Counted from the whole stretch's first letter, positions 1-57,148 are shown. The stretch is 63,608 nucleotides of DNA, filler included, from Albugo candida (GCA_040437565.1; 8 parts of 8 records of this genome joined end to end with filler, not necessarily neighbours in it), one strand, 5' to 3'. Translations and numbers: made by a program. Notes: generated by a model from the letters alone, not told the origin.

Positions 1-2042
1 ATTGAATTAATCTTGAAAAAAAAAATAGCGGATTCTAAACAGATTTTTAAGTTTTTGTTATCACTGTGGTCCATCTCTGCACTGTTTTTTTTGACATCGA
101 TTTTTATACGAGTGCATTTGGTTTAGTTTAATTTGGTGTACGATAGTGAAAATTCAACAGTAATAACCAGAGAACGATTTTTAGCGTGGATGTACTGGAG
201 ATATCTGTTAAGCCTGCTTGGCCTCACTCAAATTTCCGAAAAACAAAGCTTTACTCTTGATTAACAGTTACCAATAGTCTTCCTAAATACAAAATTTTCT
301 GCTTCAAGTTGATTAATTTTTTTGTTGCTAGTATTTTATTTGGTTGGATTATATTAGGTGAATGTTTAAATAGAAAGGAAATTCCAAGAGACACGAAAGT
401 CACCTATCATGTACCTTTTACATTCAATATTACAAATAAAATTAAAGTAGATGAACGATAGTTTTTATTAAGATAAATAAATTGGAAGCTGTTCACAAAA
501 TATACTTGTTCCACGGTATAAATGAGTCGGTAGCACACGAGCCTAGATTTTAACCAGTAAAAACTTCAAATTTACGGTTCACAACAATTTCAGTTTTTAC
601 GTTGCAAAAGCATCTAGTTTACGAAACAGGTCTCTGATTTATTGATACGCTACTTGTAGTATAGTGATACATAATGTGATTAGTAAAACACTTTAAGTTT
701 CGGTTTATCGGAACAATTCTGGTGGTTTACTTAAAAACACATGACAAAAGACAAGAGCAAAAATTTAACATTATATCAATGTTTATTAGCAAAAAATGTC
801 GCTTCGGCACATGATTCTCATTTTCGAAGAAAGAAGATTGATGAAATGGAGTGCCATAGGGCTTTGAAGTCATTTCTTTGTTGTCAAATAAGTTATTATA
901 AAAAAAGGTAATAATTTTGAACGCGAAGACAACACCTTTGAAGAGCGCTGTATTGAGTTGTTGAACGATGACAACGCGAGAAAACTGTGAGAATGTATCC
1001 TGTATTGCGACAAATTTGTCATGTCCTAAAGTTTTTTTACGTTGCTAAGTTTCGGAAAGGATGCCTTTCCTTAACGTGTCACAAAGGATGTCTTTTATTG
1101 AACGGTTTCGAAAGAATGCCTCATTCGCTCTCGCGAAGAATTCCAATTTAGGTCTTTGGAAAAGAGAGTAAGATTTATGCATGCTATCTATCTTAGCAGG
1201 AGGATCTTGTGTCGCGTTCCGGATTTTTTTTTCACCAAACATAATACAGCAATTTATTTTGTAATGACTTAACGACTCAACAAATATCACATATTTCGTT
1301 CTCTAGCTGATACTACTGATTGATCCCGTAATAATATATTATTCTTTTTTTCCTTTACTGAACTTTTGTTAGTCTCGATAACTAAAAGCTAGGGTTGCTT
1401 ACGAGCCGACTTGTGATCCTTGAATTGAAAGCTCTTAGTGCTTAAAATGTTACGGACCTTTTGGGTTCGTTATAGGATAAATCAGTTTTTGTACAATACT
1501 TCCGCAGTTATTAAAATACATATTTAAAAAATCCGGTTTTAAATTTAGATCTTTCTTCTTCCAAGTGAAGGCGGTTATCTTGAATATTGTATAATTTTCT
1601 GTACCACTGATTAGGGAAAAGCGTGGATTCGAAGGTGAAAATACTTTATTAACTGTTGAAACTCACTGACTTTTTGTGGGACAAACCAAAAACAATCCTG
1701 ACTCTTTGTTAACTCTATTAAAACAAATCACACTATTCTGAACAATTTAAAGGTATCTTGAGATATTAGCTGATCAAATCGTTGTAGAAAAAAGCAATAC
1801 ATAGTTATAAATTTAGTTTCACAGCGAATAAAAATATGAATGAACACATGTTTTGACGACTCATAAAATAAAGTTGTAAAAAAAGCTATGGTAACTTTGT
1901 GGTATGCTTACAGTCTAAAAGTTAGCAATTCAGATTGTATAAAGCAAACTTATTTATTTATTTTAGACAATTATTTATAGAGCAAAATAGATGTTGGCTT
2001 TTTACTGAAGAAAAACAAAGCGATATAAATTTTTTATTTAAA

Positions 2043-2752
2043 CTACTCGTAACTCTTACGCAAGGTATCTACAACAATCCCCAACTCTCTCCAGTATCTA
2101 CAAGTGTTTTTTGTTAGTCCAAAGGTGTTTTTGATCTATCGATGATATTACTTACGGCAACATATCTTTCTTTTTGTATTTTACCGAGGCAAGGGTACCT
2201 GGTAAAACGCAAACCCAGTGTTGTTCTTCTATGTTTTGGTAATCCGAAGTTATTTTACCTCTTTGGAGACCATAGTTTGGAAGTCTTTTTTTTTCAAAAA
2301 AGTGTTCGTATGTTTTTCTTCCTACAAAACAAACAACTTTTGGACGATAATTATTGATTGCATTAATTAAACTAATTTTTCCTTCTTCCATTTCCTCATT
2401 AGTAATGTCATCATCACCACCGTGTTCATCAGCACAGTAGTACATAAAACTAATACGATGTTTTTCATTAAGCACTGTATCATCTAGTGGGGTAAGGGTG
2501 TCGGTAGAGTTTATAACTGATCTTCCAGCTATGTCTTTGTAAGGTAAATGTTTTAGAAAATCTTTGTCTATATGAAATATTGTAGTTTTTTTACTTACTG
2601 TATTCTTTTATAAGTTCCCAAAAAACGTCTTTGTGGCGAGCAAAAAAATGGTTGCGGAATTCTTTGTTTCTAGGTCTCTCCCAAACACTTGTTTCAACAA
2701 AAAGAACAAAAGATTTATGTTTCAAGAGCACACTAGGTTCTTCGCGGGTCAT
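2043..2752 (-). CDS. Divergent MUG/TDG (family-2 uracil-DNA glycosylase)-like protein, predicted catalytically altered; 3 exons (2752-2599, 2528-2156, 2097-2043), 193 aa
   Basis: Spliced model MTREEPSVLLKHKSFVLFVETSVWERPRNKEFRNHFFARHKDVFWELIKEY...INNYRPKVVCFVGRKTYEHF...VCVLPGT...YWRELG. GT-AG introns 2529-2598 and 2098-2155 (ACTAAC branch point in the latter) lie at the same positions and phases as in the neighbouring paralog. GINP is replaced by ETSV. Confidence 0.75.
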
Positions 2753-3497
2753 GTTGTGTTGGTTTAAGTTGTTGGAAAAAGGGTTTAATATTTCAATGAA
2801 CTAAAATAAAGCTTACTTATATATTTCATTTGTAGTACAGACACAAATACTCTGAGGCGTCTTTTCGGGCCGATTACTTGCCTAAAAAGTAAATTTGTAT
2901 TACATTGTCGTCGGTATAATAAAGAAGACATTTCACGTCTTCTGCGGAGATCATGTTTGACGTATGTGTATTCTTTTAACTTATAAAGTTTGGTACCTTG
3001 TGAGTTAAAAAAATGGGCCCGATTTTGGATTTTAAGCAGTGAAAAAGTGTGACCCCAGATTTTTTTTTTAAAGCTAGTGTTATTACTAAAAAAAAAGTAT
3101 CCTTAGAAAGAAAGCTTTATTTGTCACTTAAGCCATAATCTTAGTATCAATACATTTGTTAAGCTATGGTGTTTCAGGTGATTTACCCATACGTCTTTTA
3201 TTTTTCAACAAGAAAATGTGTTTCAGGAGCTCTGTACTGCAGTCTACAGATTAAATTGAACCGGCTAATTTTTATGTTCATGAAATGATGGTACAATGTA
3301 TTTAAAATCATTTTCCCCAGAAGAAAAATTACTTCATATTCAGCCGTTTTATATTTACAATAATTAGCAAAACCATTTTATATCTTCTAACAACGTCAAT
3401 TAAAGTCTTTATTTATTAAAATTAATACGAGATATTATTTTCAAAGATCAATAAGAGATTTCATGTACCAGAATAATAGGCTGTTTTATTTACCAAA

Positions 3498-4212
3498 TTA
3501 AAGAGCCAGATGGATGTTGTTTTTTGTGATGTACTTGGCAAGATCCGAAAAAAATCTGGTGGTTTACAAATTGATTAATTGGTATTCAGATAACATGTGA
3601 CTGATATCAGCATGACTATACCTTTTCTTATCAGCGTGAGAATATTTAGTGCCAAGATTACTTGTAGATGGTAGGACAAATACACGACAAGTTTTTCCTG
3701 AACTCAATTTTAGTGGTTTTTTTGGACCAACTTTAATTTTGGCGTTGGGGTTATTTGTAAAGTGTCGATACATTTCGAGACCTACAAAACAAACTAATTC
3801 TGGAATGCATTCTTCAATGCATCGCAATAGTTTCTGTTTACCATGTTGGTACTCTTGCTGAGTCAAGTCATTTGCACGTCTTGTAGGTCTTTCCACTAAA
3901 TTAGTAAAACCGACATCATAGTATTTATGCAACCATGTATCATCACAAGGAAAGTGTGTGTTTGGGGGTACAATACCTATTTAGGAACGTGTTATAGTTT
4001 ATTTTTAAATTAAACAAATGAGCATGGCTGTTCTTACCACTTTCGGACAGGCATTTCCAAAACATGTTTCCTCTTCCACAAAAAAAATGCCCCTTGTACA
4101 CTTGAACAGGTGAACTTGTTGGATTGATGCCTACAAATAGTATCTTTGTTCTCTCATTAACCAATGAGGGTATGAGTAAGTCTTCCTCAAAGCTTTCGTT
4201 TCCGTTTTGCAT
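3498..4212 (-). CDS. G:T/G:U mismatch-specific DNA glycosylase (MUG/TDG family); 3 exons (4212-4038, 3976-3622, 3555-3498), 195 aa
   Basis: Motifs ILFVGINP, GHFFCGRGNMFWKCLSESG, GFTNLVERPT, PELVCFVG and VLPSTS match TDG/Mug. GT-AG introns 3977-4037 and 3556-3621 restore one continuous frame. Confidence 0.9.
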
Positions 4213-4413
4213 TACTTTCAAGAGTGGGTCCACTACAAATTCAAGGGAAAGAGAAGGCTTTGTTTTCGGTCAAAATAAATGTGTATTTATAACCAATTTA
4301 ACACAATAATATGCAGCCTGATTTGTAATTCGTAGGAGAATGCTTTATATTTTAGTACTACCAAAACTGTGGGAACTGGTATCAATACTCGTGTTTGTGT
4401 AATTAATACTAAA

Positions 4414-4473
4414 TAATTGATTATTGTCTCTTTATTGAAATAAAACTAATTGATTATGTCTACTTTATTGAAA
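4414..4473. repeat. Imperfect 27-bp direct repeat, each copy containing a minus-strand AATAAA
   Basis: taattgattattgtctctttattgaaa (4414-4440) and taattgattatgtctactttattgaaa (4447-4473), just 3' of the 4509-5908 gene. Confidence 0.6.
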
Positions 4474-4508
4474 AAGTGAATCATTGAAGAGAGGAAAAAT
4501 AAAATGTA

Positions 4509-5908
4509 CTAAGTAGACTTTTGCTTGCCTTTGTTCTTTTTTGGTTTTGGTTTTGGTTGTGTAGGCTTTGGTTGTGTAGGCTTCGATTTAGCTGAATTTG
4601 ATTGGGATGGCTTTGATTGGGATGGCTTTGATTGGGTGGGCTTTGATTGGGTGGGCTTTGATTGGGTGGGCTTTGATTGAGTTGTTTTTTTTTGAGTGGG
4701 TACGGCTCTTTTTCTTTTCTTGGGCTTAGGTTCAAAAAAATTGTCATCATCATCATCACTATCATCATCATCCGCACCTCCTAAGTGTAACTCATTCAAA
4801 CCCAATGTGGATGTAGTTGAGGCTTAGTTTACAGTTGCACAAGTAAAAATAAGATTAGATGCTGAGAAAATGTATTAATCAAAACTAATTACCTTGTGAC
4901 AAAGAAGATTGGATACTATTTTTCGAGATGTCTGTATGATCACTCAAAACTGAAGTAGATCTTTCCCTCGCTTCTTCTTCCGCAGCTGCAGCTGCACGTG
5001 CTCTTTTCTCCTTATTTCTTGCCATGAAATTACTAATGTCACGTTTTGGTATTTCGGGAGTACGAGAACGATCCAAAGATGGTGTCAAAGATGGTGCTAA
5101 TGAAACTGATCTACTACGAGTTGCAGTTTGTTGTGTAACGGTAGAATTACTCGAACGTTCGCTATTATTGTCATCATCACTTTCTTGTGTGTTTTCTGAC
5201 TCGCTTCCATGCATATTTTCTTCCTCGTTTTCATCTGTATCTTCTTCGTCCGAAGAGCTTTCATCCACTGTATAAGTAAAGTCGAAGTCAGTCAAGTTAA
5301 TTTTTTATGGGGATATTTACGGAACTTACAATTGAACTGCTCTCTAGCATCAGCATTTCTTGTTGATCTTCTTACAAATTCCTCATTTGTAAAATTAAAT
5401 CGAGCGTGTACGTTGGTCATGTTGATTGTTTCATCCGCCATACTATCGGTACGAGCTCTTGCTCTGTCTCTTATACGTGTGGGTACAACCGGGTCACATG
5501 CGACGATGTACAATTGAAGAGCCCTAATAGAGTGTCTGACATCGTTAATATCACCAAGAATATCTGCATCTACTCTCACGGGGGTAGAAAAGCCGCTAAC
5601 GATACCAAATAATGGCGATCCTGATGTTGTAGTAGGTAACTCAATTGGCGTGAGTGCTACACGATTGTGCGCAGTTAACGCGGCGTTCAATACATCTCGT
5701 GTAATCTCAACTCTTGTGGCCGATAATCTACATGACATAATCTTTTAGCGATATTGTGTAATTACTTAAATTACGTTACTTACAATTCTGTGTGGTGCAA
5801 CTCAAAAATGTAATCTTGTTGAATTGAAGTATTATCGGTTCCTGTACCTTGCAAATGCAGTTGTCTAGGGAAAAAAATGCCCCATGAGGTAGTATAATTA
5901 CTTGTCAT
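4509..5908 (-). CDS. Hypothetical nuclear protein: globular N-terminus, acidic tracts, NLS-like motif and (TQSKP)n basic tail; 4 exons (5908-5784, 5727-5330, 5267-4893, 4822-4509), 403 aa
   Basis: Three GT-AG introns of 56, 62 and 70 bp join the listed ORFs 5292-5738, 4885-5295 and 4509-4805 in frame with an upstream exon MTSNYTTSWGIFFPRQLHLQGTGTDNT. Contains DESSSDEEDTDENEEE, PKPKKRKR and pentapeptide repeats. Confidence 0.7.
4545..4685. repeat. 15-bp coding minisatellite encoding TQSKP/SQSKP/TQPKP
   Basis: Tandem gattgggtgggcttt-like units. Confidence 0.85.
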
Positions 5909-6283
5909 CTGTGCGAAATGTAATGTGTAAGTTTTTCTATCGAGTAACATTCTCGATTTCGTGAGGCGAAGCCCATTACTCGATTTTGATTTATTTTTTG
6001 ACTCACCTGAAAAAAAATTGATTGTGAAAAAGTTTCAAGTGCGATATACTGTGCTTTCTCTTATACTTTTTTACGGGGTTAATTTTATCAACTGTTACAC
6101 TTGGTAATATTAGTGTGGGTACGTAAAAAGAAATCACAAGATAAACTTAAATTAATGTGGGTACACGTAATATTCGGTATCACAAATATGTATAAATAAC
6201 TTGAGACAACTTTCCCATCGTTTTTGAAATCATCTTTCACGATAACCTTTCACTTTTCAAAAATACTTTTATTAATTTTTATC

Positions 6284-7005
6284 ATGCTTAACATCGAAGC
6301 CGAAATTCGTCTTTACAACGGTGGTAAATTTACTGTTGGAACGGATAACACTGTCAACTATGAGATTAAAGGCTCATGCGCTGGGGGAACTGTCACTCTC
6401 TATACCACGGACAACAATTTAATTCTGTATGCAATTAAACATGCGGAAAAACACGTGAACATGCTTGTTCAAGGTAATGATTATTTTATTTGCACGTTTT
6501 TGTTAGATACTTATACTCACCTTAATTTGGCTATTATTTAGGACCTGTGGTTATGAAGGCTTGGGTCTCTGACAACAACCAAGCTAGACCACGCTTGCAA
6601 GGTACCTGCGAGCAAATGCAGCGTTTGCGTTCTCGGGTGAACCGTGTCTGGATGCCTATGGTTTCAACTGAAGCTGTAGGTTCTCTTCCCATCTCCAAGT
6701 TGACGGATTACTTGGTCATGAGACATGTTGCTTCCAAGTGGGGAACTGATGCCGTTGTTGTCCGAGGACACAATTCCCTCGGTAACTTTTGCATACCCAT
6801 GCAAGCTCTTCACAACGAGCTTGTTGAAGAAGAAGTTATTGCTGATGGTCCTCTTGTTGTTTCTGGTGTCCTCCCGGATGAGAATGAGATGGAAGAAGAT
6901 GAAGAGAATGACGATTTTGCTGAGCAGTTACGCCGCCGTCGTGAACGAGAGCAAGAGGCCAGCGATCTCGTCATTTCTCCCATTGACAATATTGTCATTA
7001 ATTAA
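6284..7005 (+). CDS. SSB-like OB-fold single-stranded DNA-binding protein with acidic C-terminal tail; 2 exons (6284-6473, 6542-7005), 217 aa
   Basis: Splicing out 6474-6541 (GT...TTAG) creates MLVQGPVVMKAWVSDNNQARPRLQGTCEQMQRL, which aligns without gaps to the SSB consensus as I recall it ([33 protein letters not shown]). Acidic tail DENEMEEDEENDDF. Confidence 0.6.
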
Positions 7006-7143
7006 ATTTTAATTAATAAAAATTATTTCTTCTGTTTTTCCCCCCAAAAATTATTTTTTTTCTCAATAATTAATTTTGCTCTTTTCCTCTTCAATTACTT
7101 TTTTTTTTTTACTAATTGCTTTATTATACAATTAACTTTTCCA

Positions 7144-8417
7144 ATGTCATTTTCTTTTTCCCGTCAATCTCGAATGGAAGCTAATGCTCGTCAACCCAAT
7201 GCTCGTGTTCGTGAAGAATTTGTAATGGACAATCGCATGAAGCGACATGTCGAAGCTTTTCATGAATTCAAAAATGAAAAGATTTCATTCTATTGTGCTA
7301 TTTGTACTAAGCTCATGTACAAATCCGATTGCAAGGAACGTATGTGTGCTACACCTCTCCATTTGTTGCCTTGTAACGAGTGGGGTCTTGCCCCTATTGT
7401 GACACGTTTGACCAATTTGGTCATCGTTTGCTCTTCTCACGTGAGTGGTGCTGAGTCAGGTCCCTACAACTATCCCGGTCCCTGTGTTGAAGGTGCATCT
7501 GCTTTGAATTACCGTGAATTGTCTATGCTTTCCCCTGTAAAGATCATGTCTCAAATTACTCGCAAGGGATCAATCTCTAGAGGTATTCTTGGTCATTATT
7601 CCGTTGGTGGTAGCATGTGGTCCGAGCACAACTACGAGTTTGCTCAAATGCTGTACAGTGGTTCTCTTGGCTTGACCTACAGCCGTGAAAAAAAAGGGTC
7701 CGTCAAGATCAACATGGCAAAAGTCCGTGGGGTTTATAATCGCTTGAAAAAAATTAACCCTCTTGTTCGCGACTTTGAACTTCCTGAAGTCATGGAAAGT
7801 TTGATGGAGTACCACATGGTCACCAACGAAAAGCGCTTTCCTGGTTGGAACATGAACATGTTGATGCCCGTAGGTGATGTTCCTGCTACTGCTAGTGGTG
7901 TAGCGTTAAATAATCTTGTCATTGGTAAGTTTGCGTTACAATGTTTAATCAAGGGCATAATATTCAATTAGTTTTTATTTTGTAGGCCGTGATCTTGTCA
8001 ATAACAGTGACATTTACTTTTCACACCCTGCTTTAATGGCATTGTGCTTTCCCTGGTTGTTTACCACAGGTTCAGGGCACTACTCTATGTGCTCTGTTCC
8101 TAGAGACTACTCTGGCCCCTCTGAACGCGAAGGTGGTATTGCACGTGCTACCTTGGAAGGTGAAACTTTGAAAGGGTTTGCTAAGAGGTACCTTAATTTA
8201 GCTGATCGTCGCTTCGCACGGGATCCTCTTTTTCTCTTTTTTGTACTTGATGCCGTCGAGAAACACAATATTGCCAGTAGTAACAGACATGTTGTTTCTA
8301 CTCGTGGTAGAGAACTCACACAAGGTGATGTTTACAACAATTCAACAAAAAGCCATCGTAAAGATAATACCTCCTTGGTCAGCCATGTCATAAGATCTTC
8401 ATTTGCGTACAAGCGTA
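7144..8417 (+). mobile_element. Helitron2/Helentron-type Rep(-helicase) gene, N-terminal part (Zn-binding, DUF6570-like, Helitron_like_N); intron 7925-7985; truncated by gap
   Basis: CAICTK...VCSSH; LNYRELSMLSP; INMAKVRGVYNRLKKINPLVRDF (cf. V..KV..AL.WLK.NNPLY.DI); ALCFPWLFTTGSG; LNLADRRFARDPLFLFFVLD. These are hallmark motifs preceding the HUH domain. The frame stays open to the gap. Confidence 0.8.
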
Positions 8418-8517
8418 NNNNNNNNNNNNNNNNNNNNNNNNNNNNNNNNNNNNNNNNNNNNTTAATTAATTAANNNNNNNNNNNNNNNNNNNNNNNNNNN
8501 NNNNNNNNNNNNNNNNN
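8418..8517. other. Artificial contig linker (N-run + TTAATTAATTAA + N-run); also at about 16870, 25025, 32997, 40711, 48410 and 56082
   Basis: Identical six-frame-stop spacer embedded in Ns at seven places. Confidence 0.97.
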
Positions 8518-40000: not shown

Positions 40001-40823
40001 AGCGACATGCTCGAGAAGAAATTCCTCTAATCAGCAGTTTTTAGTAAGCCCTCGAGCCCCCAAAGAGCTTCCTATTCATGCTGGGCTCCATCCTACACCA
40101 GCACAGTCGCCATTCCAAGACAACTCACATTGGATAACAGCGAACGATGTTGCTTAAGGCACTCGATAGCCTTTTTCGGCTGATTTTCCTTCAAACTGGC
40201 CATTTCCAATCGTTCTCTCTGTGAATTTTGCTGTAAATTATTTCGAGCGAGAATCATTGCAGATATCCGATTTCCATCAATCTGACTGATCCATCCCCCG
40301 TGGGAATCACTAGAAAGTAGCTTTTCTGTCCTATTGGATGCCTGTGCACTTTGTCCATGTTAATATAATTCCGAGTAATAAAGCTCAACGCTCAATGTAT
40401 TTCAAGTGATTGCATTGAATGGATCGCTTTCGAGAAGTTTGTGAAGATAAGACACCACTTTTGCGCGACTACCGAGTCCATCCTCAATTTCTAAGTCGTT
40501 TGCTCGATAGAGTAGTGAGAACGCAAGACCCAATAAGGCTTCCGTATCAAAGTCTACTCTAAGAGCACATGCGAACGCTTGGATGGTGAGGTGAGCTGCT
40601 TGATCTGATTTTTCGAATTGATGAAAAAGCCATTGCCGAGCCACATTCCCGTATGATCAGAATTCACATCTTGCAGCTTGAGAAACACATCCTTTTCTAA
40701 AGCAAAAGACNNNNNNNNNNNNNNNNNNNNNNNNNNNNNNNNNNNNNNNNNNNNTTAATTAATTAANNNNNNNNNNNNNNNNNNNNNNNNNNNNNNNNNN
40801 NNNNNNNNNNTCGTCGATAAAGA

Positions 40824-43013
40824 TTAGACACAAGGCCTAGTACAAGCAAAATATAATGCCCAAGCGCGACTTAGTCCGTCGTCAAGTGCGCATTCTAGAA
40901 GTACTTTGCATGCTTCGTGCTTATCAATGAGGCTGTAATTCGTAAAAAGTAGAGACGTCCAGCCGGAATTACATTCTCGCCATTTTTTGACTGCATCAAG
41001 CTTACACAGAATGGTTTTCCATTCTTCCTGAACAAAACCCCTTCGACGAAATGCTTCCATTGCCGGTATGACGGGGAGCATTTGAATGCCATGAATACAC
41101 TCTTTATTTGGACTGAACCAGGTCGCATAATCACACTTATTATCAAACATGATACCTGTGACTTTATTGTTTCGAAACTCTGGAGGATGTGTGACGTTAT
41201 CTTTGGAGATAAGAAAGTAGGTTGAAATTGTCAAGGCTTCCAGCTTCATCATCAAACTACCAGCAACTTGTAAGCGCACATTGTGAACAACTCGACCATA
41301 AAGTGCAAGTCCATAGAAGAAATTGATATCCTCTGACATGCTTTCCACATCTTTTCCATCAGCCATCGGTGTGATCCCATGAGAGTACGAATGCCCATAG
41401 TACCAGTTGAAGTTTCGAAAGGATGGAAAATAAGGATTGTGGTGGGAATCTGTGTTTGCGACGTCATTAATTAGGCTCTCAGTCACACTTTTGAGTAGAT
41501 CGGCTTCGTGGGATTGAGCCAATTCCGAATCCAGGAATAACAAAATGGCCACCGCTGTGATAAAATATCCGTAGTGGTAATGATGGTCATTATAAGCCAA
41601 GCTGCCAAAGTCGACATGGATATCATTTTTCTTAAGACCCTCACTAGACACGATCCCTTTGTATAATGTGTCGTAAACAAGCGGAAAAGATGATTTATTC
41701 TCTGCAAACAGTAAAAGATATTGTTTCAATTTCTGTCGTATCGCCACGCTGAGATTTACCATCGCGGGGTTTTCTGTTAGAATTGCCAATTTGGCGGACA
41801 ATAAACATAAACTTCCGATCTTTTGCAGTGCTTTGCCTCGAAAGTAATAGCTTGCTTGTGGATTCTTTGCATTCGGCCAGTCTTCAGCTTCAATTTCGCT
41901 TCGTAAGATCTCGCACAATTTTAGCTGCGTGATGTCTTGCATTGATATCTCACGTGGCGAATAAAATTGAAGGCATGCATCCACCGTTTGGTCGATATCA
42001 CAAGGAATGACAAAGTGCCATTGTAAGGCATTACGAGTCAAAAATGCTCGCATGAGACCTCGAGTATGACTGTATAACGATAGCATAGGCATCAATTGCA
42101 GATTACTACCACATAGTGATTTCATATGGTGTTCCAGTGCGAAATGCAGAAACTGAGATGCATTATGTCCATCGACACAGTTCTGAACATCCCATACAAT
42201 ATTGTAGCTCGTGGTAGATCCACCCTCATCGAAGCAAAAGTTTCCTCCATTCACATATACGCCAGCAACAGAGTCATATATTTCATCAACCTGCTCGAAA
42301 TTCTCATAAGGCAGAATTGCGGCTTGCACGGCGCCAGTGAATTTTTCTCTTGTGGTAAGGTGGTCACCTTGGAATATGAGTTCATGATCCACAGTGCTGA
42401 AAAGGTACAAACACCAATGCTGATTGTTGTTGAGGGATATAACCAGTTTTTTGCCGCAATAGACGTTCCCCACAATCCCGGGCTTATGATTGATTGACAA
42501 GATAGCGTGTCCAAATGAGATTTTTGCGTGTAAATTTACGTAGTGTACTGTCGTAAATGCTGACCCCGTTGCCAAATATGTTTCCATTGATTGTGCGACC
42601 TCACTCGAATGAGCCTCATGAGACCATTGTAATCGAACTCCGATATCGTCCCATCCATTTATTTTGAAGTTTGTAGTTTCATCGAATTCTACTGCTCCAA
42701 AAATCACACCTTTTATAGTTGCTGGGAAGAAGTAGTATTTAATAGCATCATTATCGTTTTTGGGACCTTTAACCATGTACTGAAACAAGTAGCTTGTTGA
42801 GAGGCTTGTCACTGAAACTTGTAGAGTGTAAGGGCTTGAAAAGACAGGGTCGCTCTCTTGTCGATCCTTCCAGGCTAGCAAATTACCCCACCAATCATTT
42901 GTTGGAATAGCAATCGCATCTCCGAGATGCTTTACAAAATGAGGATATATAATTTTACACAAATCTCCGGTCTTTTGAAAGACCTCTGAGGGTGGGGAAG
43001 CGAACAGAGTCAT
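40824..43013 (-). CDS. Endo-1,3(4)-beta-glucanase, glycoside hydrolase family 81
   Basis: IPTNDWWGNL, DFG..YNDHHYHYGYF, FRNFNWYYGHS, DGKDVESMSEDINF, IHGIQMLP. Intronless; first ATG at 43013. Confidence 0.93.
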   Translation of the reverse strand: MTLFASPPSEVFQKTGDLCKIIYPHFVKHLGDAIAIPTNDWWGNLLAWKDRQESDPVFSSPYTLQVSVTSLSTSYLFQYMVKGPKNDNDAIKYYFFPATIKGVIFGAVEFDETTNFKINGWDDIGVRLQWSHEAHSSEVAQSMETYLATGSAFTTVHYVNLHAKISFGHAILSINHKPGIVGNVYCGKKLVISLNNNQHWCLYLFSTVDHELIFQGDHLTTREKFTGAVQAAILPYENFEQVDEIYDSVAGVYVNGGNFCFDEGGSTTSYNIVWDVQNCVDGHNASQFLHFALEHHMKSLCGSNLQLMPMLSLYSHTRGLMRAFLTRNALQWHFVIPCDIDQTVDACLQFYSPREISMQDITQLKLCEILRSEIEAEDWPNAKNPQASYYFRGKALQKIGSLCLLSAKLAILTENPAMVNLSVAIRQKLKQYLLLFAENKSSFPLVYDTLYKGIVSSEGLKKNDIHVDFGSLAYNDHHYHYGYFITAVAILLFLDSELAQSHEADLLKSVTESLINDVANTDSHHNPYFPSFRNFNWYYGHSYSHGITPMADGKDVESMSEDINFFYGLALYGRVVHNVRLQVAGSLMMKLEALTISTYFLISKDNVTHPPEFRNNKVTGIMFDNKCDYATWFSPNKECIHGIQMLPVIPAMEAFRRRGFVQEEWKTILCKLDAVKKWRECNSGWTSLLFTNYSLIDKHEACKVLLECALDDGLSRAWALYFACTRPCV

Positions 43014-43121
43014 TGCTAACCGACAAAAATAGAACGTGCACGCTGGACAGTCCAAGATACGGTAGAATCAGATCAACTCAATTTTTATTAAATGGTGTGC
43101 ATTCAATGTCTGATTATCAAG

Positions 43122-43688
43122 TCATGTCTCAAGAAAATGAGCTCGTAACTTTTGTATACTTTTGTATCGATGCGATAGCGTGTTTTTCATCTCTTTGTCC
43201 ATTTCTGCGTACGTTTGTGAGTACCCGTGCGGTTGGAAAATTGAATCCCAGCCAAAGTTATTTGACCCTCGAGCAGGAACAATAATGCCTTCTGTTCGCC
43301 CGATGAAAAGTTTGGGCTCCAAATCATCGGAGCCGTCGGCATATGCGACTATCGTTTGCGCGTATGCGGATTTGTCTTCATATGCTTGCAATAGATTATT
43401 AAGCCCCGTGTGCCCAATTTTCTCTAAGAACCATTTGATGTAAGGTCCAGGAAGACCCCCTAAAGCATTGAAGCAAAGTGATGTATCCTCCACAAAAACT
43501 GGCCCATTGATTCGTTGTGCTGCTTGCTTGCATTTTGCGATTGCAACATCAGTTGGGTCACCTTGCAATTCCGGTAAATCGAGTTCTTGACTGCGCAATA
43601 CAAAGGGGACATCTGACCCAAGGATCACAGAGATCTCATTCAATTTGTTTCTGTTTCCAGTTATAAACGTAATGATTGGTTTAGACAT
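43122..43688 (-). CDS. ITPA: Inosine triphosphate pyrophosphatase (HAM1/ITPA)
   Basis: [44 protein letters not shown]. Confidence 0.95.
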
Positions 43689-46600
43689 ATTTCCAAAGCG
43701 ACTATTGAGGTTGCATGAAAGTAGCGTGTCAATTGATGACATTCTCATCAGACATCGCTTACGCAAAGAGCAGTCGAAGACACTCAGTAACTGTACGGCG
43801 ATGTACCGATCATGTTCGTTTTAGATCTCCTGTATGTCTTTGAACGTGAGAAAACGTTTGCTTTAACATGTGGAGCTTTAAATTTCCAGTCGGGCACTTT
43901 CTTAATCAGTCGGGGCGTATGAGTTGGCTTGTGGCTTGCTGGCAGATTCGTGATCTCGAAGAAAAATGACACCACAGTTTTTGCAGTGTCTATAACTAGG
44001 ATTCTTTGGTTTGGATCCCCGACCGCGAGCAGGAAGATTCGCTGCAGAATTGTGGATTTCGAGGGATTTTATCTGTTAAAGAACTGCAGATGCGTTCTAG
44101 TGAGTGCTCGCACTCCGTAAACATGAATTTACTCAGCAGGACTGAAGTCTGAGAATTTGTGTAGGGCGTCATAAGAAAGCTTCACACGTTCTGCCTGAGG
44201 TGTTTAAGTGATTCGGGGAACTCGTTTGGGGGCCGTAAACTCGATATAACCAAGCATGTTGGCACTGATTCTGTCTATAAATTGACCTGAAGCCATACTA
44301 ACTCATTGTGTCAAGTCGCATACTCTTCCAGTAGCATCTTGCTTCTCTTCTTCTTGCGTAACATTGTAACATCCAAGAATCCCTCCTACTCGAATCCGAC
44401 CAGTCTACGCCCCCATGCACTCTCGTACATTATTTGAACCAAATGGCGTCTATTCATATACATACAGCGAATTTAGTGGGCCGTAGATCTACTATGCCTT
44501 GATCATCCTTGATCCTACGTACAGGAAGAATTCAAGTCAGTTGTAACCATGCTTTGGATATGCTGAATAGCTCATTGTGTATAAATCACGGTGACAATGT
44601 ACCATAGCCGATGGAAAAGTCTGATTCGAGCATCCTTGTTCGCCATTTATTTGGGCACTAAACATTTATTTGAAAATTCCAGTTTGCCGAATGAATGATA
44701 ATTGAACTTTTCTGTACTCTACATCGAACAAGCAACATGCTCGATATACGCTTGATACAAGATCGAGGGCAACATCTTTGTTTAGTATGCATTACCTCAC
44801 TGATATTTGGCCAAGCAAAAATGTAAGCTTTTCTATTAGTTAACCCATATCAATATTCTAGTTCTGGTTGGCTCAAAAAAATGTTGCGCATGTGGTAGTC
44901 TAAACCAATTACAACAAATAGCATTAGTTCTACTGTACTTGTTATACTTGGAACGCCTAAGAAAAATGACGCACTACATAGTCAATCGATGCTATCTTTC
45001 AGATATGCAAATATATGTGTAACAATTGGTTATGGTATTCTTGAATAGTGTCTGGATCATGGGACAAAGTCAGTTTCAATGTGTAGGCCTAAGTAAACGC
45101 AATTTCATTCTAGTGCTGTACTTCATCAGACACAGGAATGGCGTGTGACATTGAGCGATTCGTCGTTCCATAAAGTTGTGATTCACCTTACAATTTTTCC
45201 TTTCTAGCAACACGCTTTCCATGTTCAAAACTGTACACTTGATTGCAGATGGTCACAATGATTCGAATCATATTGTCATTGCGTTCTCAAATCGAAGCTA
45301 ATTGTTTCCATGTCAACAGATGAAGATGTCTTTCACAACGAGTAAAACAGGACAACTTCTTCATTCTGATCTCGATTGAGTGAATCTGATAGGTGATGCC
45401 AAAATTTAGAGGTTGAGGCTTTTGCAAAATTTGCACAACTTGGAAACACCTCTGTTTTTCTCCTTCAAATGATATATTCCTGCACTCTCACAACTGAATA
45501 GGCATTGAATTTCACCTCATGGTCCCATTTGTCTCAAGAGGTACCAAGCTCTGCCTTTCGCATATATCCAACTTCTTTGTAGATGGCAAACTTTTAAGCT
45601 CGATTATAGACACCGGCTCAGAGGAAAAAGTCAGGAAATTTCTCACCGCAGCCGGCAGTATCACTTTCCAGTAGTGTGCACTTTTCGAGTGAATGATTTC
45701 AAACAGAAAAGATTCTTCGGCCTCGGGTATACCTAGCAATGTGGTCAACAAAGAATGCAAATCGTGTAGCGGGTGTGAGTTTTGACTTTGGGCCGGAGCT
45801 CGGTTTATATGCTTTTCGATCCTTCAGACCGGCAGAAATATCTTTTGAGGCATGCGATAGACCTAGAAGCACTAGTTTCCATTAGCGCGAAGATAGAAAT
45901 GAATTGTAGAGGACTCATCAAGAGCATGTGGGGAGATCTTTGAACTTTGCATACCAATGACAAACCTCAAGCACTGACCGTTCTCTTAAAACGGCATTGA
46001 GAAATGAAAAGAGCTCACGCAGTACATGCTCAACACGGTAATTCTAGCAAGGATGGCGATCAGTACCTTCCTGATCAATATAATGAAAAGCCTCCTTTTT
46101 TTCTCATTGAACCCACATTCCTCTTGTATATCTAGACAGGAGGCATGTATCAAGACATGCAATTGCGGACAGTGCTTCACCGAAGCCCTACTTGGAGTCT
46201 GAGATCGGCATCTTGAGAATGCGCATGGCTTCTATCATAACGCATAATCAAATTCTAGGACTTCGAATGAGTCTAATTTCAAGGACCAGCAGTGGACTTG
46301 TTAGACCTGAGATGGTCGCAACAAACGATCACTGCAATTAGAACGAGGGAAACGACGTATCAATGGAAACTCTTGCCCACAGCTTAAGTGCTAGCTTTGC
46401 ACCCATGCTTTAGTGTAAGTTGGATAAAGGCGGGTATGGGAAGATTTTCCACATAAGCGGACAAGAGTGGAGCCGCCCCAGCTCAAGACGCTCGAGTAAA
46501 ATTGTTCAAATGTAGTACTCATGTTTCAACACCGTTTGTTTCTACAGTTTGGTGGTTATCTACTACATTCTAATCACAAGTATTGTTGCTCTGAGAAACT

Positions 46601-48409: not shown

Positions 48410-51149
48410 NNNNNNNNNNNNNNNNNNNNNNNNNNNNNNNNNNNNNNNNNNNNTTAATTAATTAANNNNNNNNNNNNNNNNNNNNNNNNNNNNNNNNNNN
48501 NNNNNNNNNCATGCATGCATGCGATACTATTTTTGCATCATTATTGCAGCATCTTTCAGAACCTATTATCATACAGATGAGATGTCCTTTAATGATAGAT
48601 GCTTAGCGAGACTGACTTTGCTTTATGCTCGTTTCCGGCAGATCATTTCTTATTAATGTTTTTTTTTCGCATTGATACGAATTTGTTCCTCAGCGAGCGT
48701 AAATATTATCAGAGCTATGATTCGACCTGTTTCGGCAAATAACCATTTTGAAGTGATGCTCAAATGTCTGATAGGTGTTCGCATTACTGGGATACAAAAG
48801 CTCGAGGAATTGTAGTTGCGTGATAATATTCTCCAAGACTCGATCGTTTTCCTCAGTAACAGCCTTTCACTCGGATGTCAGGCGAGTAATATAAGCGCAA
48901 CAGATATTCACTCCACGATGAACTTGCACAATTTGATTTGTATAAAATGTGCTTCATGAGCTTTCTTGTTATGCCTTTTCCAGATCCTTTACTCCAATTT
49001 ACGAATTTTGCTTTAGTACTTCACATATTCATAATCGAATGTATGTTATCAAAGATCATGAGCGCGCAACATTCGCAGTAGCCTGCAACTATAAGTAAAC
49101 ATTCTGTAGCTGCTTCTCTAACCTTCTGACTCGTCCATGTTTCATTTTATAAAATCAATAAAAAAATTACCTTCCTTGTGCAGCTCATCATCATCAGTAT
49201 ATCTTACTCGAATCTCGACTACATGTACAACATTCCTTTTTTCCTTTCGATTGATTTATGTGGTTGACGTTGTAGAGCACCCTCTTGCAGAGTCGGCTTT
49301 ATTTTGGCTGTCTAAATAGTATCTGAGAGGTATTTTGATCTTTGCCTCCCAGTAAACCACCTGTATGCCTGGAGCTACTTTCTGTCAGGTTTTGAAACCC
49401 ACTTGTTGTGCAAGTTTCATCATCCTCCAATTCTATAATGTACCTACACTTGAACATCAGAAATTAGTTATTTCTATCTACCGAATGTAACAGTGCGTTC
49501 CGTGCGTCGATCTCACGATATATGCATACGGGCCAAAAAAGCGGCGAAGTGATCGCTTGCTTCACAGCATCCAGGCAAGCTGAACCATTGCTTTCGGTAC
49601 TGCAGGAGTGATACCCACTACTATTCGTTGCATCGAAACGGAAAAGGAATTTGCAGACTCAAAGCACTGAATAGCACTTAATTCCGAAAATCAAACCGAC
49701 AGCGTGGTCGGAGCAGGTACCAATACTCAACATCGTGATGGAGTAGTATTGGGTCTTCATGCTGTGGTTCGTTACTGGAATCCGGGTCTTGTTCGCCATT
49801 TTCGGTGCACGATTATGCGTTGGTGCCACTCATACTAATAGCAATATTTCAGCTGTGTGAAGCATTTGATCAACTCCCCGCTTTTTGCAGTCCCTTGGTA
49901 AATCGTGAGATCAACACACGCAATGTTTTGATATATTAGGTCGATGGAGTTGAAATAATTGATTCCGACTGGACAATTTATTCGATTGTGTATCTTAGCA
50001 TTCATAGTTGCTGAATCGTGAACGGCAAAGAGACTTGCATTAGAAATCACTCTTGGTGGAGACGTCTTTGAGCTCTCTGATTGGTTTCACTGCAGACTTG
50101 TATGTACATTTGACACGTACCGATCACATAAGAGCATTTACTCCTGAAAAGTAATCATCGTTTATATTTGTGCTTTCGTGATGAAGGTCCCACTGAGAAG
50201 GACTACCACCTGGATATATCTGTTCATCGCGTGATAATGACAAACTTGGAACCCGCGAAGCCAAGAAGCTGAAGCACGGCTACATGCCTTTTCAATTTAT
50301 CCCAAAATCAACAGATTGATGAGGCAAATGAAAGAATTCATCGTCAAAGGCCAAAAGCGGGTGTCTGGTTGCAAAAAGACTCGAGTGCTTTATGGTTTAC
50401 GGACACAGTATCAGTAAAAAAGCGTCGACTGCACTACAGTGCTATTGTGGACGGCTTATGCGATTGCTGCCACAGGTATCGAACATCAGTTTGAGTACTC
50501 GATGTGATTAAGCAAAACTTCATTCAAATTCGTAAAGTGCAATTGTACTGCTTGTAGCGTATGTTTCCATTGTAAGAGTCTATTCGATGAACTCCTAAAG
50601 GATCCGGTCCCTTATACGATCGTCTGCTATTTACTAACCAGAGTCAGAAGTAATACCAGTGTGATTGTGCCAAGATGCTGGAAGATACGAGCCGCATGTG
50701 AAATGTGGCAGAGCATGCGACGACTTCCAATATATTTACCTATAAGGTATGCGAAACGCCGTATCGTACGTCTGTTTGGATATGGCGGTAAAAAATCCCA
50801 TTGCAAAAGAAAAGAAATCTATTGCAAAATGATAAAATAAATGCGTTGGAACCTGAAAAGGAATGCCTAGAGTCTGGCCCCGATAAAACCGAGCTGTCGA
50901 GTACCTGCGAATCGCATCAACGATCGGTAATGCTGCCGATTATTACCAATTAGACGACCTCCTCTCGCAAAGGCATGAGAACGCATCAAATGCTCTCACG
51001 GAGGCGCTTGTTCCGATGAAGAAATTTAATGCACACAATAATGCGACAATGACCCAAAAGATATCCGCAAAAAACGTCATACGGTGCATCAAAAATTTCA
51101 AAACAAACAATCAACTGAGTGTCCAACGCGTCGAAAAACATTTTGATTC

Positions 51150-54900: not shown

Positions 54901-57148
54901 CTATCAAAGCCTAAAGCCTTCATGCTCCCAAAGTACGATTAAACGTTACCAATTTGTTTACTTACAAGATTTGCAAGGAAGATGTGCATTCTATTACATG
55001 AAATTGCTTATTTGCAGGAATAAGAAAGTACTGTACACCTATGTGTCTCACCTTAGGTTTGCTTCTATGCTCGCAAAGTACGGTTCCGATGCTTTAAAAA
55101 CGTTGTGCCTACAGCCTCCATATTAAATCATCAAGGAGTTCTTACTCATAATCAAATATTCGACGAACCTTGAGCACAGTCAAGATGTATCGATTCAAAG
55201 CGGATTGTATCGCCATGCTTGAATTTTCGACAGCGTATCATCAATCCGTGAGCGGTGATTACACAGAACTGTATAAAAGAAGGATAGGGAGGCTTGAACA
55301 TTGCCATTCGGGATGGCTGTAGAAACAGCAAGGGTTCATTATGAGAAGAGTGAGACGTCAGAATTAGTGATGGCATTTTACCAAAATGATACTAAGGACC
55401 CAATCCTTGCTTTAAAACAATGCTGGCCCCAAAAGGAAGTTAGCGTGCGCTATGATGACAATATAAAGTCTCGCTCTGATCCTGATGTATTGATACAGAT
55501 GGATGTAACGGTATCAGGCGGCTCTGATGATTTATATACACCAGAAAACGCGTTGGCAAGGACCTACCTCTATGATCCAAACGAAGGTAAGCATACACTA
55601 GAATACATGAAGCCTTTCCATGAATTGAATCTGGCTGGTAAATTTGGTGCGTGTTGAAAAATCTACGGGAACTTCTTGCATCTTCATTCATACTGAGCAT
55701 ATGTATTCCCCATGTGCATGGGAGAAAAGGAGGCGAGAAGAAGATGACTTAGCCCGCATGATGCTCAATCCTGACTCGTTCATCACAATAGCACCAAACG
55801 GAATGTATTCTTATGAATAATGGATGAGTATCAGAAAATATATGCAGGAGCCATTTCAGCGAATTTAAGAACACCCGGTCAAGCTGAATCCCGGAGAGCG
55901 AGCTCAAGTCCTCAGAAGTTATTCTGAACGGTGCGTCATTGAAAAACCAAAATTTCCGTTTCTCAGCTGACAATGAATGGCCTCGAATGCCAGGTGACGT
56001 TCATGAGGTGTGGAAAGAGCAGCTGGAAAAGATAGGGTATACGATCGATAAAAGAAACGTGTACCAACGTACAACGGATTCNNNNNNNNNNNNNNNNNNN
56101 NNNNNNNNNNNNNNNNNNNNNNNNNTTAATTAATTAANNNNNNNNNNNNNNNNNNNNNNNNNNNNNNNNNNNNNNNNNNNNCCTTCAATTGAACCAATTA
56201 CTTCGGACGCTTTTTTTTCTTCGGTGCAGCAGGCGGAGCTAGGCTCCATCGACTCGCTTCATGTTGCAAAATGCGTCATCAAATTGCTGCGGGCTGTTCG
56301 AGAGCTTGATTGTTCCATTTCTTTTGTATTGTGCGTTATACGAAACAAATGATACGTACACCACTTGTTAACCTGTGCGAGCCTCTCGGCAGAATATCCG
56401 GTGGCATGCGACTTCAACAAAAGATAGCCGTTGGGTCGGAGCTACTAGATCGAATAGGTCGAACATTGCGGCATCGAGTGAACAAAGGTGCGGGTGATGT
56501 ATTCTTCGACATCGGCTTTGCGATCCACCAATCGTGGCCCTTCTTGTTTCGCCGTTGTTCTGCTGTCGCATCATGTTACTTAATTTCATTGTGTTTAATA
56601 AAGTTGACGAACGTGTCGAAATACAAAGGTGCATTTTTCCAACATACCTGATATAAACGTCTTTGAACACCGTGAATCTTATTGTTAGACTGGCATTTTC
56701 TAAGCTATTTCACTATCCGACCCAAGGAAAAACGTTATTTATCATGTAGCCGCACTGATGTGATGTGGCATCAAGTTATATACTGCAAGGTATTTCTTAC
56801 TTTTTGTAACCACTTAACGATGAGTAATTTCGAACAATAGAACCTGCCACGCAAGTTCAATCTCTAACAGATAAGTCGGCTCGAAATTAGTCGATCTAGA
56901 TTAAAACGATTCTGGACTCATAACAGCATCCCAACTGCGCGGGTTACGTGGCACTTTGACTGTCCAATCATAATCGTGGACAATTTCCAGAAGTATTTGA
57001 CTGGCTTAGGATTGAATGACGCCAACAAGAGCTTCGATTTTTTTCTAGTATTCGATAATCCATTAGTGGACCAGAATCATTTAGTATTTGGAAAACCTAA
57101 ATATGGTCATAATCAAATCTGTTGACAACTGGTGACGTCAGAAGCGAT

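Follow-up and report, generated by a model that had tools for sequence, protein, structure and literature searches.

A Mucorales-type Helitron and a tandem pair of TDG/MUG-family genes on a probably fungal contig of an Albugo candida assembly

The DNA window analysed here, a stretch of 63,608 nucleotides (63.6 kb) from the Albugo candida assembly GCA_040437565.1, opens with a single gap-free contig (positions 1-8417, no N) that carries five genes, g1 to g5, all lying within ~6.4 kb and intact up to the contig end. Judged by its relatives, the last of these genes (g5) codes for the first third of a Helitron RepHel, approximately 400 codons from the N-terminus. The contig appears to represent the left-hand portion of an autonomous Helitron of canonical type, from a family otherwise seen only in Mucorales, in which a small, fast-evolving upstream open reading frame (ORF; g4) would be followed after 138 nt by the RepHel gene, cut by the assembly after about 400 codons. 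This Helitron would adjoin a divergently transcribed and more AT-rich group of three genes belonging to the same fungus, namely a TDG/MUG-family glycosylase gene (g2), its diverged paralogue (g1) and a gene for a disordered protein of nuclear type (g3). Most likely, the two glycosylase-family genes lie beside the Helitron and are not its passengers.

A Helitron RepHel gene cut at the contig end

The g5 product begins with a Cys-rich, zinc-finger-like stretch that leads into the start of a Helitron_like_N domain (FPWLFTTGSGHY ... DRRFARDPLFLFF); taken alone, its second exon (exon b) matches Helitron_like_N in Pfam at a weak E of 0.055. A partial NCBI model of g5 (P0002, 363 aa) is filed, like the model of g4 (P0001), as Albugo candida, and a search with P0002 among 1.84 billion representatives returned 128 relatives at E ≤ 1e-3, of which 22 reached ≤ 1e-30. 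Identity is about 33-54% for named Mucorales or JGI proteins, with 33-51% for the relatives that bear a name (P0003 from Radiomyces being a further Mucorales relative), and reaches 74-75% in the two closest relatives, both Logan proteins. In an alignment of 13 members (A1) the longer relatives extend beyond the g5 cut, first through FFTxTCDDF and then through the HUH motif RGSPHIHCVLW, which was found in P0009, P0138, P0015 and P0137. Helitron_like_N (PF14214) was detected in ten of the 13 members, with a best E of 6e-29, and in relatives of g5 HUH, the Tyr motif and a PIF1 helicase follow further on.

A metagenome scan for related Rep loci, based on five sequences with the 13-sequence set being too diverse for patterns, yielded one related DNA locus, a 5.2-kb contig (L001, 1-5186) that is 41% identical to g5. 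The RepHel of L001 is complete, comprising a Cys-rich N-terminus, Helitron_like_N (4.5e-31), HUH, a YLAKYLAK tyrosine stretch and PIF1 (5.4e-13), although split over at least five ORF pieces by introns or frameshifts, and the contig continues for 435 nt beyond the stop of the helicase, in which no CTRR hairpin end is obvious. The Rep start pattern M-x-F-x-F-x-R is common to g5, L001 and P0008. Viral contigs gave no match for the Rep alignment, g2, g3 or g4, and a scan of genome contigs likewise found no related locus. Because the relatives of g5 run on into HUH, and because L001 holds a complete Helitron_like_N and PIF1 gene, we regard g5 as the first third of a RepHel. An earlier note on this DNA had claimed a Rep gene whose HUH and helicase parts lie outside the contig, and this agrees with what we find: g5 stops before the HUH motif, and the positions of HUH, the two Tyr residues and PIF1 fall past 8417. 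The contig sequence was located in one sequencing run only, the probable source run (a weak observation, since the run search covered part of the runs), where the contig extends 3051 nt beyond 8417, about enough to complete a RepHel like that of L001. By the mechanism shown in relatives, the HUH/Y2 Rep would nick the element, the PIF1-type helicase would unwind it, and a single-stranded circle would be formed and pasted between host bases.

The earlier assignment to the Helitron2/Helentron type found no support. The criteria used for that type were DUF6570, described in the part of PMC11417382 available to us as the N-terminal marker of HLE2, and for Helentrons also an AP-endonuclease (Exo_endo_phos) domain. 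DUF6570 was absent from g5 exon a (E ≤ 1), from the 13 relatives (E ≤ 0.01) and from L001, P0012, P0071 and P0044, and no endonuclease domain was present in the complete L001 RepHel; the type was judged by domains and not by a Rep phylogeny. We also noted that P0012 (Absidia glauca, 1146 aa) has a CCHC zinc-knuckle N-terminus fused to a RepHel related to that of g5, and it is probably a chimeric prediction spanning a retroelement gag fragment.

A small orphan gene upstream of RepHel

The g4 gene encodes a 217-aa protein with an acidic tail and ends 138 nt ahead of the Rep start. Its previous description as SSB-like could not be substantiated, with no OB or SSB signal in Pfam (no family at E ≤ 1, and a sub-threshold DUF4611 only), in the PDB (best E 6, to an unrelated protein) or in the Atlas search (no usable match); an AlphaFold2 (AF2) single-sequence model was too poor to judge the fold or to support a fold search, with a predicted local distance difference test (pLDDT) value of 35.6. 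A search of 5.8 billion proteins gave 62 candidates that share words with g4, of which only g4 itself matched, and by these sequence searches it is an orphan protein.

Despite this isolation, g4 is probably the Helitron's own upstream ORF. It looks tied to Rep because of the 138-nt spacer, the shared frame, the matching GC content at third codon positions (GC3) and a weak resemblance to what precedes Rep in two Mucorales gene models, P0071 from Parasitella and P0044 from Zychaea, in which these upstream stretches are fused to Rep N-termini. In end-free global alignment the similarity to P0071 reached z 3.6 (3/1000 shuffles); for P0044 it was weak also (z 2.7, 11/1000 shuffles), and the control P0012 gave z -1.0. 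L001 likewise has a plus-strand ORF that ends ~250 nt before its Rep start, but this ORF has no detectable likeness to g4 (z 0.3).

The genes g4 and g5 are in the same frame, with one TAA followed by 46 stop-free codons. This frame was also open in 2029 of 20000 mononucleotide shuffles of the spacer, making it only mildly unusual. A fusion of g4 with g5 by readthrough or splicing was rejected, given that about 10% of shuffles are open, that the spacer offers no AG acceptor and that the Rep start pattern recurs in L001 and P0008. We also considered that g4 might have arisen as a copy, since diverged, of the 'NYEF..GTLGL' segment near the Rep N-terminus, for which P0089 gave an E of 5e-5, but the score of 59 compares with shuffled maxima of 48 ± 5 (highest 57) over 140 proteins; this origin was not accepted because the shuffles come near the real score and because a family hidden Markov model (HMM) and hhalign were negative.

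A tandem pair of TDG/MUG-family genes and a repeat-tail protein

On motif and family matches, g2 is a TDG/MUG-family (UDG family 2) glycosylase and the one probable enzyme of the pair. Its two exons matched Pfam UDG at 2.7e-5 and 2.4e-5 (24.7 and 24.9 bits, barely above the 24.3 cut-off) and human TDG at 4.2e-8 and 9.3e-7, a match to E. coli MUG was found at 2.3e-7, and the nearest Atlas clusters were all UDG (score 0.95). Motifs kept in g2 comprise GINP with the catalytic Asn, G-N-x-F-W, GFTNLVERPT and LPSTS, and LFVGINPT of g2 aligned with IIGINPG of TDG. A homologue search with g2, run in a 75-242-aa window that shut out ordinary eukaryotic TDGs of 300-400 aa, produced one candidate and none that scored. 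From the motifs that it keeps, g2 would flip U, T or some further damaged pyrimidine from its mispairing with G and cut the glycosidic bond, the Asn of GINP holding the water.

Its neighbour g1 fell under the Pfam UDG cut-off of 24.3 bits (19.4 bits, E 1.2e-3) and matched human TDG at 1.4e-4. The paralogy of g1 and g2 is nevertheless clear from their direct comparison, in which 51 of 205 aligned columns are identical (25%) and the alignment score reached z = 21.7, with none of 1000 shuffles as high. Intron 1 of g1 shares its place and phase with the only intron of g2, a match which argues that the two genes arose by duplication at the DNA level. Three in-frame acceptors are possible for this intron of g1 (31, 37 and 64 nt), and the 64-nt form was chosen because its size fits the other introns and because the only long gap against g2 then disappears. 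At the GINP columns of g2, g1 reads ETSV (LFVETSVW), and at FTN it reads FMY. We conclude that g1 is a member of UDG family 2 by descent and a tandem paralogue of g2, and is probably no enzyme, because the catalytic Asn has been lost; the chemistry proposed for g2 would be impossible for g1, which, if expressed, might at most bind DNA. The earlier description of twin MUG/TDG glycosylases can be kept in so far as both proteins belong to the family, but without the catalytic Asn in g1 they would be twins in fold only.

The third minus-strand gene, g3, is divided into four exons by GT..AG introns that measure 56, 62 and 70 nt. Its product begins with a part of ~190 aa, which is followed by a Ser/Asp/Glu-rich acidic stretch, by a basic patch (KPKKRKR) and by a tail of KPTQS-type repeats. 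The tail is specified by DNA with a 15-nt period, in agreement with the repeat-tail protein noted previously. Neither three pieces of g3 nor its first-exon ORF matched Pfam at E ≤ 1, a PDB search gave nothing under E 0.6, and an AF2 single-sequence model of the N-terminal part (largest exon) reached a pLDDT of 35.0. A word shared with the glycosylase pair (WGIFF/KGHFF) raised the idea that g3 is a third, degenerate TDG paralogue, which was rejected at z -0.05 and -0.45 against g1 and g2, respectively. The word GTGGGTAC occurs three times, at 5477-5486 within g3 and at 6113-6122 and 6156-6163 in the divergent g3-g4 intergenic region, where both copies fall within ~50 nt; it may be a promoter element.

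Probable source of the contig

The contig was filed as Albugo candida, the white-rust oomycete; our comparisons point instead to a fungus. We looked up 30 clusters of Rep relatives. An organism name is attached to 21 of them, in every case that of a Mucorales genus (Rhizopus, Mucor, Parasitella, Absidia, Radiomyces, Zychaea, Benjaminiella, Syncephalastrum, Choanephora, Apophysomyces and Dichotomocladium), with no oomycete among them. The lineage was confirmed for three; we take the remaining genera to belong to Mucorales also. The contig is an outlier in composition, with a GC content of 35.7% against 41.5-44.4% in the other eight pieces of the window, and with tetranucleotide correlations of 0.61-0.76 to the others against 0.73-0.91 among the others. 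It also has eight introns in five small genes, whereas the other contigs contain intron-free ORFs of up to 746 aa, as is typical of oomycete genes. On those other scaffolds (18709-20689, 23208-23963, 28570-30417, 40824-43820) we noted ORFs for a GMC oxidoreductase (two ORFs), a Ras-family GTPase, a HEAT-repeat/cohesin-associated protein, a GH81 glucanase and a Ham1 NTP pyrophosphatase. No RNA run was listed with the contig sequence. Because the named Rep relatives are all from Mucorales and the contig is an outlier in composition and intron density, it is probably a fungal contaminant, derived from a Mucorales-like fungus that accompanied the Albugo sample.

Neighbours or passengers of the Helitron

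The arrangement that we favour, at roughly an even chance, is a Mucorales-type Helitron made up of g4 and g5 that lies beside the fungal host genes g1-g3, and this simple adjacency was ranked likelier than carriage of the three genes by the element. GC3 is 0.27, 0.30 and 0.31 in g1, g2 and g3, resembling the flank GC of 29-32%, as compared with 0.44 in g4 and 0.40 in g5. In the source run two contigs, the right-hand one of 6,819 nt, tile the region at similar depths (27.8 and 30.5), and they break only at the g3 repeat and at no putative element border. No sequence resembling g1-g3 was detected in 140 proteins of the Rep family (best blastp E 0.26) or in L001, which has 565 bp upstream of Rep. 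Helitron ends are defined by a 5' TC and by a 3' CTRR with a hairpin, and a search of the contig for the marks of such an end found no repeat or hairpin.

Several points weigh against this arrangement and the fungal origin that goes with it. With no terminus found, the left border of the element could lie anywhere in 1-7143. The depths are a single figure for each contig and not a copy number, and an element of at least 11.5 kb that is repeated whole would look the same; a GC3 difference over five genes is weak evidence. Both g1 and g2 are highly diverged (25% identical to each other and ~30% to TDG, over the catalytic domain only), and this divergence, together with the two orphan neighbours, fits rapidly evolving selfish cargo better than it does the repair genes of normal housekeeping. 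Co-occurrence was judged from one related DNA locus with its 565 bp upstream of Rep, and the length filter of the g2 search left out normal TDGs. The similarities of g4 to the Mucorales models are marginal, and a family HMM (score -2.9) and hhalign (probability 0.15%) detect none. Finally, the contaminant view is based on composition and the names of relatives.

The alternative that survives best, though we consider it unlikely, places all five genes inside one Mucorales-type Helitron with g1, g2, g3 and g4 as stable cargo. A role for that cargo, no likelier than the arrangement itself, would be to guard the single-stranded intermediate or silenced copies against cytosine deamination, or to help erase a silencing mark. 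Five intact genes in 6.4 kb adjoin an intact Rep start, and g1-g4 are all orphan-like or highly diverged and fast-evolving, as cargo might be. Helitrons hold accessory genes upstream or downstream of RepHel, with 20 stably included domains reported by HELIANO in the portion of PMC11417382 that we could consult, and TET/JBP dioxygenases, whose products are removed by TDG, are carried by fungal Helitrons according to the available part of PMC12730594. In two N6-methyladenine (6mA)-methylase mutants of Mucor, the genes for a PIF1-like helicase (protein ID 1601498, 'PIF1/RRM3') and for a TDG (protein ID 1452591, 'thymine DNA glycosylase') increase in parallel (PMC11258239, as far as its text was accessible), a pattern which would fit one derepressed element and which serves as a lead and not as a test. 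Set against these points are the GC3 split, which falls between g3 and g4; the lack of a copy-number step or contig break at an element border; the failure to find repeats or termini; the absence of glycosylase-like sequence from L001 and 140 relatives; and the orientation of g1-g3, which are on the strand opposite to g4-g5. In addition, the main text of the HELIANO paper (PMC11417382), in the form available, contains no instance of 'glycosylase' or of 'UDG'. A more specific proposal is improbable to a slightly greater degree, namely that the Helitron has its own base-excision module, consisting of an active TDG/MUG enzyme (g2), a dead paralogue (g1) that is perhaps a reader of lesions or marks, and two fast-evolving nuclear proteins; such a module would shield the single-stranded intermediate, or methylated or silenced copies, from C-to-U or 5-methylcytosine-to-T decay.

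Equally doubtful is a genuine Albugo candida contig in which the Mucorales-type Helitron, with or without its neighbours, arrived by horizontal transfer. The filing of the contig under A. candida is consistent with such a transfer, as are the intact ORFs, which suggest a recent arrival, and the horizontal movement known for Helitrons (PMC11417382, in the part seen). The compositional outlier is however the entire 8.4 kb, including the non-coding flank, and not the element alone; the intron density is of fungal style in all five genes; and no further run was listed with the contig, although this last point is weak because part of the runs was covered. It is very unlikely that g1-g3, and perhaps g4, form another accessory or mobile unit with selfish glycosylases, into or beside which the Helitron inserted, for although g1-g3 are diverged or orphan and the flank is AT-rich and gene-poor, the contig has no transposase, integrase, repeat or terminal structure besides Rep.

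Gene models and other features of the window

The window consists of eight scaffolds (nine N-free pieces) of ~7.4-8.4 kb each, arranged in descending order of length and joined by spacers of the form N44-TTAATTAATTAA-N44, so neighbouring contigs in the window are not genomic neighbours. A run of 100 N at 35893-35992 is internal to one scaffold. By reading both strands and by scripted splice-choice tests we obtained five stop-free gene models at 2043-8417 with eight GT..AG introns of 56-70 nt (Table 1). The five intact, spliced and tightly packed genes reported previously on a gap-free contig were thereby reproduced, as was their order of three minus-strand genes followed by two on the plus strand, and the start coordinate 2043 given for them is the exact stop end of the three-exon g1 model. 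No second copy of any of the five genes was found within the window.

Table 1. Coordinates of genes and other features in the window
Feature	Position	Strand	Description
g1	2043-2752	-	exons 2752-2599, 2534-2156, 2097-2043; 195 aa
g2	3564-4212	-	exons 4212-4038, 3976-3564; 195 aa
g3	4509-5950	-	exons 5950-5784, 5727-5330, 5267-4893, 4822-4509; 417 aa
15-nt tandem repeat	4533-4697		encodes g3 KPTQS/KPSQS tail; 8 register copies, 15-nt spacing
g4	6284-7005	+	exons 6284-6473, 6542-7005; 217 aa; identical to NCBI model P0001
g4-g5 spacer	7006-7143	+	138 nt, 18.8% GC; T-rich; no AG dinucleotide
g5	7144-8417	+	exons 7144-7924, 7986-8417; intron 7925-7985; cut at contig end
Left flank	1-2042		32% GC, no long ORF; contig depth same as gene cluster
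Scaffold spacers	8418-8517, 16870-16969, 25025-25124, 32997-33096, 40711-40810, 48410-48509, 56082-56181		

No tRNA and no Rfam family was found in the left flank. Within it, at 534-582, a 45-nt stretch recurs, with 3-4 mismatches, in very short source-run contigs that have a depth of 256-465x, and is a short repeat abundant somewhere in the source sample. On the second scaffold, minus-strand ORFs at ~11300-11900 resemble the integrase-to-chromodomain end of a Gypsy-type retrotransposon, as seen by eye from translations with no family search.

Significance and comparison with known systems

The firm outcome of this analysis is that a Mucorales Helitron family gains a new member, intact in appearance, together with a predicted tandem pair of one active and one dead TDG. 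There is also a warning for the mining of oomycete genes or horizontal transfers, as this contig, although part of an Albugo candida assembly, is probably a fungal contaminant. Should the glycosylases indeed move as part of the Helitron, no rolling-circle transposon before it would have been seen to possess DNA-glycosylase genes; it would form a repair-side counterpart to the fungal transposons that carry TET/JBP, and would widen the theme of cytosine-modification enzymes on fungal transposons. Literature searches, in the text available for each source, found no Helitron with a DNA glycosylase, only host glycosylases acting on Helitrons or unrelated work.

When set beside human TDG and E. coli MUG, g2 can be aligned through each half of the domain, with GINP, G-N-x-F-W, GFTN-VER and PS-S all retained, while g1 differs from both in the absence of the catalytic Asn. 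In contrast to human TDG, g2 is a bare 195-aa domain without the TDG regulatory tails, has F-F after the conserved GH where TDG has H-Y, and has a residue other than Arg at the position aligned with the insertion-loop Arg of TDG. We take the H-Y after GH and the insertion-loop Arg to be functional positions in TDG.

Fungal transposons that carry TET/JBP, Helitrons included, are alike in the idea of a cytosine-modification or repair enzyme on a transposon, TDG acting just after TET (PMC12730594, available in part). Those transposons, as described in the same portion of that source, are defined by termini and many copies and occur in Dikarya, whereas here there is no TET/JBP gene and carriage of a glycosylase is only a candidate. 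In its position just upstream of RepHel, g4 resembles the accessory genes RPA, Ssb-like_OB, OTU and EN of Helitrons, as listed in the accessible part of the HELIANO paper (PMC11417382), but none of these domains is present in g4, and there is no EN or DUF6570 in the g5 family. Another close likeness is to the canonical (HLE1-type) Helitron RepHel of Mucorales, for example the Rhizopus clusters named 'Helitron helicase-like domain-containing protein', with which g5, known from its first ~400 codons only, shares both the Cys-rich N-terminus and the start of Helitron_like_N.

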